Virus record (IMG/VR): IMGVR_UViG_2737471992_000006
DNA: 45,327 nt
Origin: a virus
Taxonomy: Duplodnaviria > Heunggongvirae > Uroviricota > Caudoviricetes
Reading direction: 5' to 3' (one strand)
Both the position numbers and the translations under genes were made by a program. A model generated the notes under the pieces. The model had not been told where the DNA came from. It searched no databases and saw only the letters and a program-made list of their open reading frames with translations. Each line of letters opens with the position of its first letter. The stretch's first letter is position 1. Of the stretch, positions 1-45,327 are shown one piece after another.

Positions 1-1038
1 TTAACGCTTATCCGCCACCAGTTTGAGCGCGTGTTCCAGCACATTAATGTCTGCACCCGCTTTATGGGCATTTTCACTTAAATAACGTCGCCACTGCCGC
101 GCGCCAGGAATACCCTGGAACAAGCCCAGCATATGCCGGGTAATATGGCCGAGATACGTCCCCTGGCTGAGTTCACGCTCAATGTACGGATACATGGCGC
201 GCACTACCGCCACCGGATCGGCATCGGTATCCGAGGAACCAAAAATCTCTCGGTCTACCGCCGCCAGAATCCCCGGATTCTGATACGCCTCGCGCCCGAC
301 CATCACGCCATCCATATGTTGCAAATGCGCTTTAGCTTCTTCCAGCGACTTGATACCACCGTTAATCGACATCGTCAGATGCGGAAAGTCACGCTTCAGT
401 TGATACACACGCGGATAATCGAGCGGCGGGATCTCACGGTTTTCTTTCGGACTTAACCCAGAAAGCCAGGCTTTACGTGCGTGGATGATGAACATCTCAC
501 ACTCACCTTTGCCGGAAACGGTGTTGATGAAATCGCAGAGAAATTCATAGCTGTCCTGATCATCGATGCCAATACGCGTTTTCACCGTCACCGGAATCGA
601 CACCACATCGCGCATCGCTTTCACGCAGTCGGCAACCAGCTGCGCATTACCCATCAGACACGCACCAAACATGCCGTTCTGCACCCGGTCAGACGGGCAG
701 CCGACATTCAGGTTGATCTCATCATATCCGCGCGCTTCTGCCAGCTTCGCACACTGTGCCAGCGCCGCCGGATCGCTACCCCCGAGTTGCAACGCTACCG
801 GATGTTCTTCTTCACTGTACGCCAGGTAATCACCTTTACCGTGAATAATCGCCCCTGTGGTCACCATTTCGGTATACAGCAACGTATTGCGGGAAAGCAG
901 ACGCAGGAAATAACGGCAATGTCTGTCCGTCCAGTCAAGCATAGGAGCAATGCTAAACCGAGAATTCCAGTAAACACCATTTTTTTCAGGCATCACGCTG
1001 GTTTGATTAATTTTTTGTGTTTCATGATTATCGTGCAT
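1..1038 (-). CDS. dusA: tRNA-dihydrouridine synthase A (DusA)
   Basis: 345-aa ORF with the TIM-barrel Dus signature and full-length resemblance to E. coli DusA; ATG at 1038..1036, TAA at 3..1. Confidence 0.9.
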
Positions 1039-1126
1039 TTTTGAACATTTCAGGCTATTTTTCTCGCGTTAGGTTCCCGCACAGGTTCCCACGTTTTATG
1101 GGAACCCGAAATAACGAGGTCGTGTA

Positions 1127-3220: not shown

Positions 3221-5283
3221 TCCACAACCTCCCCAAGCTGCGCATCTGTTAGCTCTTTATGCCAGAGACGAAAATTCCTCACATGCCCAAATAAATGGCG
3301 TAATCCTGCTGTAGTTTGTCCACCAATGCGAATGGTTGCTGTACTCCGGATATATTCCCATTTGGTTTTAGTTTCGCTGCTTAACTTACCGTTACTGACT
3401 ACACATGTGGACCGTTCGGACTTTACCCGCATACCAATAAGCATTTTTTCCAGCCCGGCATTTTCATTTATTCGTCGGTCTGAACCACCTATATCGCAAT
3501 ACGGAAAACCGTCGTACCCACCTGATGAACCAAACCCCATTACGATCCCCGCTCCGGTTTGATGACCGCCGGTATCAAAAACACGCGGCGCTACATTTGG
3601 CGTTTTATACCAGTTCTTATGTACCTCACAAAGAACCGTAAAAGGAAGATTATAAAGGTTATTCTTGATTGGGACTGTCACCATATCGCTTGCCCGCGTT
3701 GCCGGTGTCGTCCCCGTAACAATAAAAGATGATGTGCCTGTACCAGCCTCAATCTGTGGAGTGGTTACATCGAGATAATCCCCTGATGCAACCATCTGCC
3801 CTGTATCCGGAGAATACTGGACAAAACCACCAACCGTATTTTCTGTTGTATCTGCTTTTAATGTAGCCTCAAAAAATATCCAGCCAGTTGCATCATCCTT
3901 AACAGACCTTGCTGTAACACGGCTTGTCTGACCTGTCTTGCTAATTATGCGGGTGGTAAGGTTCAGGTTTGCTGCTCCTATTGATGTCCTTACCTCCCCA
4001 TCATAATGTTCAAATAAAATACGAACGGCGATATTATCAACTTCACTTTTTACCCGACAGGATATAGTTACATGCTTTTCGTCCCCTGAAGTATCAACCC
4101 CTCCGGTACTCGAATACAGTCCGATAATGGTATGCGCTTTACTTGTACCAACAATCGAATCCTGTACGACAAACCGGCCATAATTAAACCCGAAACTATC
4201 TGTGCCTGTTTCTGTAACGTCCAGTGAAGTTGACTTATTCCACTTCGAAGGGTCTGTACTGTTCTGGAAGAAGTTCGTTCTTTGTCCCTCAATAAGCAGG
4301 CCATCACACTCAAATCGCGGCTCATTAATTTCCGCCGTTTTCAGTTCGCCAGATTTGTTGATATATGTTGCCGTTGATGCGCGACTGAAATTAACCTGTT
4401 TATCACTGGCAACCTGAACCACATTATCACCAATCTTCACTTTTTTATAACCCGGAGAATAGCCCGTAATCATATCCAGCGAATCATTAAAGGGTATCCA
4501 CACATCCGGCAGCGGCTGTAAAACATATCTGTACGGCTCTGCTGTCTGGTTTGCGTATTCTCTGGCAGCATCTTCACTTGCTTTTGCTGCCGTCTGGCTT
4601 GCTGCCGATGCTTTCGCCGAGTTCGCCGCCGCTGTTTCGCTCACCTTTGCGTTGGCTTCACTGTCTTTGGCATTCGTCTCACTGGTTTTCGCTGCCGTCT
4701 GGCTGGATTTTGCGTTTTTTTCGCTGGCCTTTGTGGCTGTCTCGCTATTTTTCGCGCTGGTTTCTGATTTTTTGGCTGCTGTCGCGGAGTTTGCCGATGC
4801 AGTCTGCGAGGCCGCTGCCGCCTGTGCGCTGTTAGCTGCATTCGTTTCTGAGGTTTTCGCCGCATTCTTCGATGAGGCTGCTGCCGTTTCGGATTTCTTT
4901 GCCGCCGCTGCACTCTGTGATGACGCTCCGGCATGACGTGCCACTTCATTCACCATCAGCTCAAAACGGCGCAGTGCCTCCGGACGGGCATCATCCTCCG
5001 TCATGGCACCGAGAAAATCATTCAGCGTACCTGGTCTGGAACCTTCATAGACGGTAATGGTCCCGGCATGTGAAGGTGGAAAACCTTCAACCAGCAGGGT
5101 GACGCTGTACTGACCATGCTCAACATCCATGCTGTAACGCCCGGCTTCATCCGGATTTTCAGAGGCCACCGTGTTCACCAGTACCGTGGTGCTGTTACGC
5201 TTTGCCTTCAGTTGAATAGTGCAGTTCTGTATTGGTTTTCCCGCACCATCTTTCAGCACACCTGAGATTTTTACTGCTGCCAT
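3217..5283 (-). CDS. stf: side tail fibre protein (lambda Stf-like N-terminus, divergent C-terminal receptor-binding region)
   Basis: N-terminal ~120 aa closely resemble lambda Stf (MAAVKISGVLKDG...TITVYEGSRPGTLNDFL); ATG at 5283 preceded by GGAG; central Ala/Ser/Thr/Lys repeats; C-terminus resembles a lectin/LamG-like jelly-roll (my reading). Confidence 0.85.
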   Translation of the reverse strand: MAAVKISGVLKDGAGKPIQNCTIQLKAKRNSTTVLVNTVASENPDEAGRYSMDVEHGQYSVTLLVEGFPPSHAGTITVYEGSRPGTLNDFLGAMTEDDARPEALRRFELMVNEVARHAGASSQSAAAAKKSETAAASSKNAAKTSETNAANSAQAAAASQTASANSATAAKKSETSAKNSETATKASEKNAKSSQTAAKTSETNAKDSEANAKVSETAAANSAKASAASQTAAKASEDAAREYANQTAEPYRYVLQPLPDVWIPFNDSLDMITGYSPGYKKVKIGDNVVQVASDKQVNFSRASTATYINKSGELKTAEINEPRFECDGLLIEGQRTNFFQNSTDPSKWNKSTSLDVTETGTDSFGFNYGRFVVQDSIVGTSKAHTIIGLYSSTGGVDTSGDEKHVTISCRVKSEVDNIAVRILFEHYDGEVRTSIGAANLNLTTRIISKTGQTSRVTARSVKDDATGWIFFEATLKADTTENTVGGFVQYSPDTGQMVASGDYLDVTTPQIEAGTGTSSFIVTGTTPATRASDMVTVPIKNNLYNLPFTVLCEVHKNWYKTPNVAPRVFDTGGHQTGAGIVMGFGSSGGYDGFPYCDIGGSDRRINENAGLEKMLIGMRVKSERSTCVVSNGKLSSETKTKWEYIRSTATIRIGGQTTAGLRHLFGHVRNFRLWHKELTDAQLGEVVE
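4560..4950. repeat. in-frame tandem repeats encoding the KxSExxAxxS shaft of Stf
   Basis: Reiterated gc-rich units produce long spurious ORFs in all other frames here. Confidence 0.6.
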
Positions 5284-43048: not shown

Positions 43049-43330
43049 ATGAACACCTTGTTTTTACTGATGGCTGAATTCAATACCCCTAACATTGAAC
43101 TCTCAGCAGTTAGCCAAAAGTACTTTGGCATGAGTCCAGCCACGGCAGAAGCAAAAGCAAACGCTTGTAAGTTGCCCGTTCCAACATATCGCATCGGCAC
43201 ATCACAAAAAGCAAAACGTTGCATCAATATTCAGGATCTTGCGGAATACATAGACAAAAGACGAGAAGAAGGACGTATCGAGTGGGAACAGGTCAGAACA
43301 GGCAAACAGAAGGGCAAAGAACATCACTAA
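43049..43330 (+). CDS. PrtN/excisionase-like DNA-binding protein (Xis candidate)
   Basis: 93 aa from the ATG at 43049 (GGAG Shine-Dalgarno); ...LPVPTYRIGTSQKAKRCINIQDLAEYIDKRR pattern of PrtN/AlpA-type excisionases. Confidence 0.6.
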   Translation: MNTLFLLMAEFNTPNIELSAVSQKYFGMSPATAEAKANACKLPVPTYRIGTSQKAKRCINIQDLAEYIDKRREEGRIEWEQVRTGKQKGKEHH

Positions 43331-43332
43331 AG

Positions 43333-43421
43333 AAAAAACGCATAAAGGCCAATGCCGTTCACTTAAGATGAGCGGCTCTGCATTTCACCAGATAATGGTG
43401 TTTTGATATCTTAATTTCCCT
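43333..43421. repeat. left arm of a ~90-bp imperfect inverted repeat flanking the CoiA-like gene
   Basis: Reverse complement of 44585..44674; core tttcaccagataatggtKttttgatatcttaatttccct matches at 38/39, plus cgttcacttaag and aaaaaacgc blocks. Confidence 0.8.
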
Positions 43422-43520
43422 CGGCTCTGATAGTCGTGGGCATTTTGTTATGAACACAATATCCAGAACATCCAGCAGATGTTCCTGTCATTTCGGGATG
43501 GCTACGAGGATAAGACAGCA

Positions 43521-44555
43521 TCAGAAAAACATTTCAGCTTTTTTACCATCAAATATCCACCCGCTGGATAAGATTTTCATATTGCTAGCATAAGTAAAAG
43601 TAAATTCTATCATTATCTTTTGTTTATCATTCGGATAGTCGAAAACCTCTAATAAAAAGCAATCTCCTATAAGTGAATAACAATGTATGCAACCGTTAGA
43701 TAAATAACAATCACTGTCTCTGTCCTTAACAGTACCAATTCCAGCCGCCCAGAGTTTTTTGTTATCCACGTGAGTGGCTATTAGTTCTTTGACATCAGAA
43801 TCACGAAAAGATAAAAACTTGACGAATACTGATTTACTGTAAACAGAAATCCCCCTGATAATTCCAGTTCGTTTTTTACATCTCCAGCATTTTGTAACTC
43901 GCGATTCTATTTTTGCAGTCAGCACATCCCCAACCTTTGGGAACCATAATAGCTTTCTGGCGAAAACACCCGCGATAAACTCCCTGACACTAATCCCAAA
44001 CTGCGGTAGATACAAGTCCCCATTTTCATTCTGACGCACACCAAAAACAGGTAAATCGTAGCTATGGTATATATCCCCACCATGCTCTTTACTTCCTTTA
44101 CGTAACTTTCGCAACCACAGTGCACGGACTCCTGATGCGATATATCGTTTTTGACGTTCTTTAAACTCATCGTCTTTTTGCGGTGATAGCTGTACTTCGA
44201 AAACCAGTTTCGCATTATTTCTGGTACAAAACACATCGGCAATCCATTCTTCTCCTGCTGGGGTCACCCCTTGTTTTTCGGTAGTAACTGACCAGCCAGC
44301 ATCACTGGCTAATTTTGCGATTAAGAATTTGAGATATAAATGTTCTGCGCTTTCTTTCGCATACAGGCAATCGCTTTTGGATTTATGGGAAAAGTAATAG
44401 TTATTAAGTTTACTTGTTTTAGGTATACCAAGCTGGCCACAGCACGACATAAACAAAGACTGGCTTTTATATGTCTGTTTAAGATGTTCCCATTCCTGAG
44501 AGTTAAATTCAAAAGAATGAATTTCTTTTCCGTTAAGTGACGCTTTTAGTGGCAT
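43521..44555 (-). CDS. CoiA-like (competence-protein-CoiA family) predicted nuclease
   Basis: 344 aa; N-terminal zinc-finger pattern F.SCCG...YFSHKSKSDC...KESAEHLYLK characteristic of CoiA proteins, then a PD-(D/E)xK-like core (IADV ... FEVQ); AT-rich gene. Confidence 0.7.
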   Translation of the reverse strand: MPLKASLNGKEIHSFEFNSQEWEHLKQTYKSQSLFMSCCGQLGIPKTSKLNNYYFSHKSKSDCLYAKESAEHLYLKFLIAKLASDAGWSVTTEKQGVTPAGEEWIADVFCTRNNAKLVFEVQLSPQKDDEFKERQKRYIASGVRALWLRKLRKGSKEHGGDIYHSYDLPVFGVRQNENGDLYLPQFGISVREFIAGVFARKLLWFPKVGDVLTAKIESRVTKCWRCKKRTGIIRGISVYSKSVFVKFLSFRDSDVKELIATHVDNKKLWAAGIGTVKDRDSDCYLSNGCIHCYSLIGDCFLLEVFDYPNDKQKIMIEFTFTYASNMKILSSGWIFDGKKAEMFF

Positions 44556-44584
44556 TCATGCTACCTGTATTTACCCTCCCAGCA

Positions 44585-44674
44585 AGGGAAATTAAGATAT
44601 CAAAAAACCATTATCTGGTGAAACGCAGTACCACCACACTTAAGTGAACGACATTATGCCTAAAGGCGTTTTTT
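44585..44674. repeat. right arm of the inverted repeat
   Basis: See left arm; the outer boundary (gcgtttttt) abuts the stop of the 57-aa gene. Confidence 0.8.
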
Positions 44675-44694
44675 AAAAAATCACCACCTATGAA

Positions 44695-44868
44695 TCATAC
44701 TGCTTTGCAACGACGAAGCTTACCCTGCTGCTCTTTACCAGAGACAGTAGCGTGAGTGAACGCATTAGGAGCAGCCTTCATCAGAACTTCAACAGCCGCA
44801 CCCATACCTACGAATGCTTTCATTGTGTCGAACTTAACCTGTGGCTTGGTTGCTTTTTGATCTTCCAT
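44695..44868 (-). CDS. 57-aa small protein, second gene of an AT-rich two-gene operon (not in the ORF track)
   Basis: ATG at 44868 preceded by GGAG (8-nt spacer); TGA at 44697..44695; 39 nt downstream of the 139-aa gene. Confidence 0.45.
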   Translation of the reverse strand: MEDQKATKPQVKFDTMKAFVGMGAAVEVLMKAAPNAFTHATVSGKEQQGKLRRCKAV

Positions 44869-44907
44869 AGAAAACTCCAGAAGCTATACCGAAAAAATTC
44901 CTGTTGT

Positions 44908-45327
44908 TTACTCATCATCAATAGATGATACGCAATATTTATTTTTAAATTTAAGGTTCTTTGGCGTAACTTCATCAGATATATCAAAACCGTCCAGAAT
45001 TCTATTGAATGTAGCTTCTGGCATATCATCATGAACAAAAATCTCACCCGATCGCTGCTTTCTAACCATGTTATCCACTCGCCAAATTATAGCTTCAGCG
45101 TAAACAACATAACTTGGATGCTTGATAAAGCGATGATCACCAGAATTCAAGACGCAAGACGGATCGTGGGGGACACCATCCTTGATACTAGAAATATTAA
45201 CAACTAAAACACAATAACAATCGTTAACGGGGTAATAAACAGGATCATTACAAATCACATGAAGATGATTGCATGGCCCAGTTGGGGCAAGCACAGTTCC
45301 TTTCCTGTATGGCTGATAATCCGTCAT
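44908..45327 (-). CDS. 139-aa hypothetical protein, first gene of the operon (Cys/His/Asp-rich)
   Basis: Complete ORF (ATG is the last three bases of the window, TAA at 44908..44910); AT-rich; no recognised family. Confidence 0.55.
   Translation of the reverse strand: MTDYQPYRKGTVLAPTGPCNHLHVICNDPVYYPVNDCYCVLVVNISSIKDGVPHDPSCVLNSGDHRFIKHPSYVVYAEAIIWRVDNMVRKQRSGEIFVHDDMPEATFNRILDGFDISDEVTPKNLKFKNKYCVSSIDDE

Follow-up and report, generated by a model that had tools for sequence, protein, structure and literature searches.

We investigated the right end of IMGVR_UViG_2737471992_000006, a stretch of 45,327 nucleotides (nt) of tailed-virus DNA (the whole stretch is hereafter called the window), in which an earlier note had proposed a two-gene operon of toxin/antitoxin (TA) or abortive-infection type. 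The analysis indicates that the first gene, encoding 139 amino acids (aa), is very likely the toxin gene of a PanA/PanT type II TA pair whose antitoxin gene, panA, lies just past the window edge, that the second gene, orf57, is a separate phage gene, and that the whole is prophage cargo of a known kind. The elements concerned are as follows.

45324-45896 in window-equivalent coordinates, mostly outside the window, minus strand: panA, 190 aa, Panacea domain (PF13274)
45324..45327, minus strand: ATGA overlap of the panA TGA and the panT ATG, from the sequence of locus L001 (8025-8028)
45327..44908, minus strand, ATG start: panT, 139-aa toxin candidate with a predicted MazF/PemK-like fold, Kurata cluster T6
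44869..44907, minus strand: 39-nt spacer between panT and orf57, holding the Shine-Dalgarno sequence GGAG (44878-44875) for orf57
44868..44695, minus strand, ATG start: orf57, 57 aa, phrog_2741, outside the conserved PanAT pair

Both open reading frames (ORFs) of the earlier note were indeed found on the minus strand with the 39-nt gap that it gave, the good Shine-Dalgarno sequence ascribed to the second one was located as GGAG 6 nt 5' of the 57-aa ATG, and the window stops, as described, at the start codon of the 139-aa gene, its final position being the A of that ATG. The accompanying caution that this edge may hide an upstream partner was well founded. The E. coli NR3736 chromosome, to which window positions 43300-45327 are 100% identical, carries directly upstream of the 139-aa ORF and on the same strand a 190-aa gene (WP_000458583.1, 'Panacea domain-containing protein'), so that the proposed two-gene operon has a third gene. 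The TGA of this gene, panA, overlaps the 139-aa ATG by 4 nt (ATGA), and the last four bases of the window therefore represent a translational-coupling junction. The region 44695-45327 has a GC content of 40.4%, versus 50.6% for the whole window; the low GC shared with the neighbouring coiA gene, claimed for both genes, holds for the 139-aa gene (38.1%, versus 38.4% for coiA) and not for the 57-aa gene (47.1%). Codon comparisons revealed purifying selection on the 139-aa gene (60 synonymous versus 15 non-synonymous differences from a Kosakonia homologue) and on orf57 (14-15 synonymous versus 4-8 non-synonymous differences from an Enterobacter copy, mainly at third positions).

The panA product matched PF13274 (SocA_Panacea) over residues 27-137 with an E value of 1.8e-18 and 67.9 bits (gathering cutoff 25.7). 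The protein, which begins MFCEEKVAQ, consists of a standalone Panacea domain and a C-terminal helical tail of about 50 aa, with no recognisable DNA-binding domain. Among the features by which PanAT systems were recognised (Kurata 2022), the locus has a Panacea domain in one partner and same-strand genes at most 100 nt apart. Separately, we observed that a protein cluster at 90% identity lumps the 190-aa PanA with the 139-aa PanT even though their sequences are unrelated. This merger is a database artefact, presumably created by mis-called or fused ORFs (one member has 232 aa) that bridge the two sequences, and annotation based on clusters could be misled by it.

The pairing itself is conserved far beyond this locus. 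In five of five divergent phages, namely Yersinia YeP1, a Vibrio Vinavirales phage, Pseudomonas Sirocco (Peduoviridae), a Klebsiella phage and a Helicobacter prophage, a homologue of the 139-aa protein is encoded directly 3' of a PF13274 gene. We also scanned one genome per species with a PanA profile built in this analysis. As a result, 36 loci were obtained, and in all 35 usable ones, from Gamma- and Alphaproteobacteria, the PanA-profile gene ends at the start of the 139-aa homologue, with a 4-nt overlap in about half; in most of the rest, the two genes overlap by some other short length or stand a few nt apart. Altogether, the PanA-PanT pairing was kept in 40 of 40 other loci, in hosts from the Gamma-, Alpha- and Epsilonproteobacteria and in five types of phage. 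In Sirocco, the panT homologue (L007 1486-1884) is unannotated and a 44-aa ORF is called inside it on the opposite strand; the Sirocco PanAT genes are separated by about 450 nt from those for the portal and terminase and are located close to the left end of the record.

We then examined the 139-aa protein itself. The PGAP/RefSeq call of panT (window 44908-45327, L001 7609-8028) is a 128-aa protein that starts at an internal GTG with a strong AGGAAAGGA Shine-Dalgarno sequence. The ATG of the 139-aa form is nevertheless likely the true start, because residues 1-11 (MTxYxPYRKGT) are kept across 34 homologues, the ATGA overlap couples this start to panA, and the annotation of phage Lys8385Vzw uses the overlapping 139-aa form. 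It follows from this conservation and coupling that many database PanT entries are probably truncated at the N-terminus; the P. moraviensis protein cluster discussed below includes 108-aa versions, too. The 62 homologues of the 139-aa protein (Enterobacterales, Vibrio, Shewanella) are all annotated as 'hypothetical', and the protein falls in the function-unknown PHROG phrog_19071. An AlphaFold2 model based on a 34-sequence alignment was confident (predicted local distance difference test score, pLDDT, 89.7; predicted template modelling score, pTM, 0.83). In Foldseek searches with this model, the PDB matches were almost exclusively MazF chains, the best at a probability of about 1, and proteins named 'PemK-like' or 'Endoribonuclease' ranked first among the viral models. 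The modelled 139-aa protein thus appears to adopt the SH3-like barrel fold of MazF/Kid/CcdB, with an additional C-terminal helical segment (helices 104-116 and 122-131). Given this fold and the Panacea partner, the earlier statement that neither protein resembles a phage core protein needs qualifying for the 139-aa protein.

The described system to which the pair corresponds could be specified further. PanA/PanT systems were defined by Kurata et al. (2022, PNAS; PMC8832971), who validated nine pairs, one of them the PanAT of Pseudomonas moraviensis. In the accompanying dataset, toxin cluster T6 is labelled 'EndoA/PemK/MazF-family RNAses', in line with the HHpred prediction of the P. moraviensis T6 toxin as an EndoA/PemK/MazF-family RNase (PMC8832971). 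This PanT was toxic in E. coli, was neutralised by its own PanA, with which it formed a complex in pull-downs, and specifically blocked 35S-Met incorporation (PMC8832971). The T6 members in the dataset include two from Enterobacterales strains, with a spacing of -4 in Pantoea septica LMG 5345 and of -1 in Yersiniaceae bacterium 2016Iso4, and two of our loci, L016 and L014, come from these very strains and have identical spacings. Furthermore, Sirocco PanA has at its N-terminus exactly the ten residues, MIFSEQKVAQ, that were restored to P. moraviensis PanA in PMC8832971, and P0207, a 132-aa protein encoded on a 6.09-Mb P. moraviensis contig, is 43% identical to the 139-aa protein over 120 aa (pairwise E value 4e-34). 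On the basis of these comparisons, we assign the 139-aa protein to the T6 PanTs. The accessions WP_000458583.1 and WP_137472323.1 do not occur in the searched part of the supplement of PMC8832971.

Several points weigh against this assignment or against reading a function from it. The 139-aa protein gave nothing at E<=1 in Pfam or NCBIfam, including PemK_toxin PF02452; its family profile yielded one chance-level match among the PDB sequences (E value 0.53, an unrelated enzyme); and hhalign comparisons of the family with single E. coli MazF and Kid sequences returned probabilities below 1%. The relation to MazF thus rests on the predicted fold and on the HHpred result of PMC8832971 for T6. The identity of P0207 with the experimentally used accession WP_083201923.1 is likewise deduced from the species and locus features. 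Eight PanTs, including a phage-borne E. coli T1 'mRNase', were non-toxic in E. coli (PMC8832971), and homology is consequently no guarantee of toxicity. No anti-phage phenotype is reported for T6, and PADLOC-DB v2 contained no match at E<=1 for PanA, the 139-aa protein, the 57-aa protein or CoiA. Around panA, a promoter scan gave one 9/12 consensus match, and promoter-like sites were not enriched (6 found versus 8.9 expected from shuffled sequence), which leaves the promoter a bare consensus match. Finally, the residues found in at least 97% of 47 diverse PanT members (G17, H21, L22, H23, D28, D55, C58, H65, S72, Y76, G113 and S117) form a set rich in His, Cys and Ser, and the chemistry could differ from that of MazF. 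The only Pfam, NCBIfam and PADLOC matches of the 139-aa and 57-aa proteins, ICMT and DapC, were at chance level and were discarded.

An alternative reading is a PanAT module with a non-RNase toxin, which could be a CcdB-like gyrase poison or could act on another target by His/Cys-based, possibly metal-dependent chemistry. We regard this as unlikely, as MazF/Kid-type chains outranked CcdB in both structure searches, and metabolic labelling showed that the T6 homologue inhibited translation specifically and not replication (PMC8832971). The T6 PanT assignment also settles, in substance, one outcome that the earlier note had named as contrary to its proposal: the 139-aa protein can be placed in a described family (PanT T6, MazF-like fold), and the 57-aa protein cannot.

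The prophage setting became clear from the two ends of the element. The window encodes DusA (PF01207) at 1-1038 and a tyrosine integrase at 1127-2224. At the other end, a dusA 5' fragment (L001 8852-8959) has been displaced to a site about 250 nt past panA, and it repeats window 935-1042 in direct orientation at 81% identity. The phage brings a substitute 5' end that preserves an intact dusA (345 aa), and the native fragment ends up at the far junction, as is typical of dusA-specific integrases. In the circular genome of phage Lys8385Vzw, the order is the PrtN-like gene, then on the opposite strand orf57, the 139-aa gene and panA, followed by the integrase gene and dinI. Because of the displaced dusA fragment beyond panA and this gene order, panA-panT-orf57 is prophage cargo next to the attachment site; the same two observations rule out host DNA beyond attR. 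Among 5426 complete E. coli genomes, 208 (about 4%) carry panAT, on dusA-integrated lambdoid prophages and always in the chromosome, which makes it an accessory trait; a wider query that included orf57 and the PrtN flank found 565 of 5426. The alternative of host housekeeping genes is accordingly set aside, the genes lying within the prophage and occurring in only 208-565 of these genomes. Rightward extension of the sequence hence supplied the panA partner and the dusA fragment, and for the promoter only the weak consensus match mentioned above. Between the promoter-like hexamers and the panA start, we also noted a 24-bp imperfect palindrome, CACCATAAGGAGCTCATGTTGGTG (L001 8660-8683, outside the window), which might be an operator, even though PanA lacks a recognisable DNA-binding domain.

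We next consider orf57, which belongs to phrog_2741 (E value 2.7e-34). Its homologues are restricted to Enterobacteriaceae and Hafnia, with identities of 65-100% and, with few exceptions, a length of 57 aa, and an exhaustive profile search among 1.8 billion proteins recovered 13 clusters at 50% identity, all of short proteins except one 939-aa repeat protein, a probably spurious match that we rejected. The AlphaFold2 model of Orf57 (pLDDT 66) shows one amphipathic helix, spanning residues 15-32, between disordered flanks. At the C-terminus, almost every member, distant ones included, has a basic tail with Ala-Ala as its last residues, which we take to resemble the C-terminal degrons of ClpX.

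The earlier idea of a TA-type cargo module in a prophage slot was sound in general, and it had cast the 139-aa and 57-aa proteins themselves as the toxin/antitoxin or abortive-infection pair. Their arrangement on one strand with a 39-nt gap, a good Shine-Dalgarno sequence and a large-then-small layout fits such a pair, and a small, possibly unstable protein with a disordered basic tail would suit an antitoxin. This pairing appears extremely improbable, however, since an orf57 homologue was present in none of the 40 other PanAT loci, the 13 orf57 loci that we fetched lack the PanT family, the orf57 region occurs in 565 complete E. coli genomes versus 208 for panAT, sequence similarity between orf57 loci with and without panAT ends about 13 nt 5' of the orf57 ATG, and a translationally coupled, strictly conserved partner of the 139-aa gene already exists. 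The real partner is panA, outside the window.

Elsewhere, orf57 usually stands 3' of a gene of 177-204 aa assigned to phrog_4350, at a gap of 140-195 nt, in mEp460 and Salmonella dusA prophages, in late regions of Enterobacter prophages and in Hafnia (gene copies at L004 3407-3940, mEp460_023; L046 2274-2807; L051 2283-2822; L055 2319-2858). The phrog_4350 gene occupies three prophage 'moron' slots: next to the attachment site, ahead of the lysis genes in the late region, and, in Hafnia, adjacent to a gene with a RelA_SpoT domain. A GNAT-like identity, suggested by the C-terminal motif '...YYxSFGF', found no support in Pfam at E<=10 or in a PDB profile search, whose sole matches, HIV gp41 constructs, were spurious. 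The phrog_4350-orf57 spacers of the mEp460, Salmonella and Enterobacter copies share a stem or palindrome whose loop varies, CCAATCG-N5-7-CGATTGG (L004 ~3290-3320, L046 ~2900-2930). It may be an operator or RNA element, and the window, with panAT in place of that region, lacks it.

The homology of orf57 between panAT and non-panAT contexts begins only about 13 nt 5' of its ATG, and the panT-orf57 spacer is therefore a recombination joint. Since orf57 is absent from 40 PanAT loci, is found elsewhere behind phrog_4350 and shows this homology break near its ATG, it is a separable small phage gene, and panAT replaced the usual upstream gene in this phage lineage. We found no terminator-like site between panT and orf57, and co-transcription of the two is thus likely. 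Relative to a near-identical cassette-free E. coli copy, the window orf57 carries A20V, R54C and A57V and one synonymous change; the three substitutions all fall at otherwise conserved positions, including the terminal Ala-Ala, and may reflect relaxed constraint in the cassette-bearing lineage.

Its position could instead mean that orf57 is an accessory of this PanAT, that is, a labile modulator, a sensor or a chaperone-like third component of a tripartite system. Accessory third genes do occur in subsets of PanAT loci (PMC8832971), orf57 follows panT directly without a terminator in all loci examined in detail (L001-L003; about 208 E. coli genomes and 2 phages carry panAT), and nearly all members share the basic tail and Ala-Ala end with its resemblance to ClpX degrons, SocA-type Panacea proteins being known to work with ClpXP. 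We nonetheless consider a tripartite system unlikely. No panAT-orf57 co-occurrence was seen beyond this one phage lineage, and orf57 keeps its PrtN-like gene and terminator as neighbours where a phrog_4350 gene stands for panAT; because these neighbours are unchanged, its position is explained by descent, not function. In addition, third genes were judged probably to have no general role (PMC8832971).

Speculatively, and with only a small chance of being right, Orf57 may be a protease-labile protein, by virtue of its basic -AA tail, that defines a mobile 'moron' slot and forms with phrog_4350 an undescribed two-gene TA or defence module; panAT would then have replaced its partner, leaving an orphaned regulator or a newly recruited PanAT modulator.

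Returning to the PanA/PanT pair with orf57 as a separate gene, and going beyond the gene order, ATGA overlap, Panacea domain, predicted fold, conserved pairing, P. moraviensis homology and separability of orf57 established above, we infer PanT toxicity, RNase activity, neutralisation by PanA binding and a biological role as follows. The window would hold the distal two-thirds of a three-gene unit, panA-panT-orf57, at the end of a dusA-integrated lambdoid prophage; in cassette-free strains, this unit is followed by a terminator. In the lysogen, a promoter within the 250 nt that separate panA from the dusA fragment would drive transcription toward the phage interior, and the translation of panA and panT would be coupled by the ATGA overlap. 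PanA would bind and neutralise the MazF/PemK-fold PanT, until loss of PanA, or a trigger sensed by PanA as proposed in PMC10440598, frees the toxin. Free PanT would then be expected to arrest growth by blocking translation, presumably via RNA cleavage, as its homology with the P. moraviensis member suggests. For the lysogen, the outcome would most plausibly be prophage addiction or stabilisation, abortive infection triggered by another phage, or both. The third gene, orf57, would have been joined behind panT by recombination and is probably co-transcribed.

The neighbourhood on the other side of orf57 is marked by a coiA-like cassette of about 1.3 kb (window ~43350-44657, L001 6051-7358; CoiA_nuc E value 1.5e-8), with the following features next to orf57.

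44585..44655, no strand given: right terminal inverted-repeat arm of the coiA cassette (71-nt arms, 86% complementary)
44658..44674, plus strand: right-hand copy of the split intergenic terminator hairpin (GCCTAAAGGCGTTTTTT), from comparison with cassette-free strains

In cassette-free strains, one bidirectional terminator directly follows orf57, between it and the PrtN-like gene. Comparison of the junctions with the cassette-free locus L002 revealed that the cassette was inserted in this terminator hairpin, AAAAAACCCGCC-TAAA-GGCGGGTTTT, leaving a half-terminator at each junction (window 43333-43349 and 44658-44674). The earlier note had the operon end precisely at the edge of the repeat arm; its end is near that edge, not precisely at it, because the 57-aa stop (44695-44697) lies 20 nt outside the outer arm when the arms are taken as 44585-44655 and 44658-44674. 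The insertion deletes the minus-strand T-run 3' of orf57, and panAT-orf57 transcripts may for this reason run into coiA. Carried by only 12 of 5426 E. coli genomes, the cassette looks like a hairpin-targeting selfish element and is context, outside the TA module.

The locus represents PanAT cluster T6, a type of system already described, in an E. coli prophage, and belongs neither to the Pfam-level MazF family nor to SocAB; current understanding is not overturned by it. What it corrects is the locus picture, in which the window boundary and the 128-aa PGAP call together conceal a classic ATGA-coupled PanA-PanT pair. It also provides a natural E. coli host context for T6, so far validated only by a heterologously expressed Pseudomonas member, and this context would be convenient for asking whether T6 PanAT defends against phages or stabilises prophages. 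In addition, the orf57 family and its usual phrog_4350 partner are flagged as an uncharacterised mobile cassette.

Compared with known systems, the pair differs from MazEF and Kid-Kis (PemIK) in that its toxin has no detectable sequence similarity to PF02452 members, carries extra C-terminal helices and has His/Cys/Ser-rich conserved residues, and in that its antitoxin is a Panacea-domain protein and not of the AbrB/RHH type of MazE/Kis. With SocAB of Caulobacter (type VI), it shares an antitoxin with the SocA_Panacea domain of PF13274, and some copies are named 'SocA family protein' in RefSeq and other sources, which would suit a PanA that delivers the toxin to ClpXP for degradation. We judge such an adaptor mechanism highly unlikely and find it not indicated here: the window-locus PanA fails the SocA equivalog NF047745 (13.5 bits versus a cutoff of 190), PanT has a MazF-like predicted fold and is unrelated to SocB (cluster T10 in PMC8832971), and stable PanA-PanT complexes were demonstrated, the T6 pair included (PMC8832971). 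Two other systems of PMC8832971 come from E. coli as well. The PanA-linked pair of E. coli STEC O31 differs in its toxin, a small membrane peptide of T3, and the PanA/T1 pair of E. coli MOD1, flagged as phage-borne, has the non-toxic T1 'mRNase'; the accessions of both are other than WP_000458583.1 and WP_137472323.1. The P. moraviensis PanAT, in turn, is flagged 'NotPhage' in the dataset, whereas the present copy, known from sequence, resides in an E. coli lambdoid prophage at dusA and is followed on the same strand by orf57 and, in this strain, by the coiA cassette. Both have a standalone Panacea antitoxin gene upstream of, and overlapping, the gene for a 132-139-aa toxin that is MazF/PemK-like by prediction, the toxins being 43% identical when P0207 is taken as the toxin and the PanA N-termini reading MFCEEKVAQ here and MIFSEQKVAQ there.
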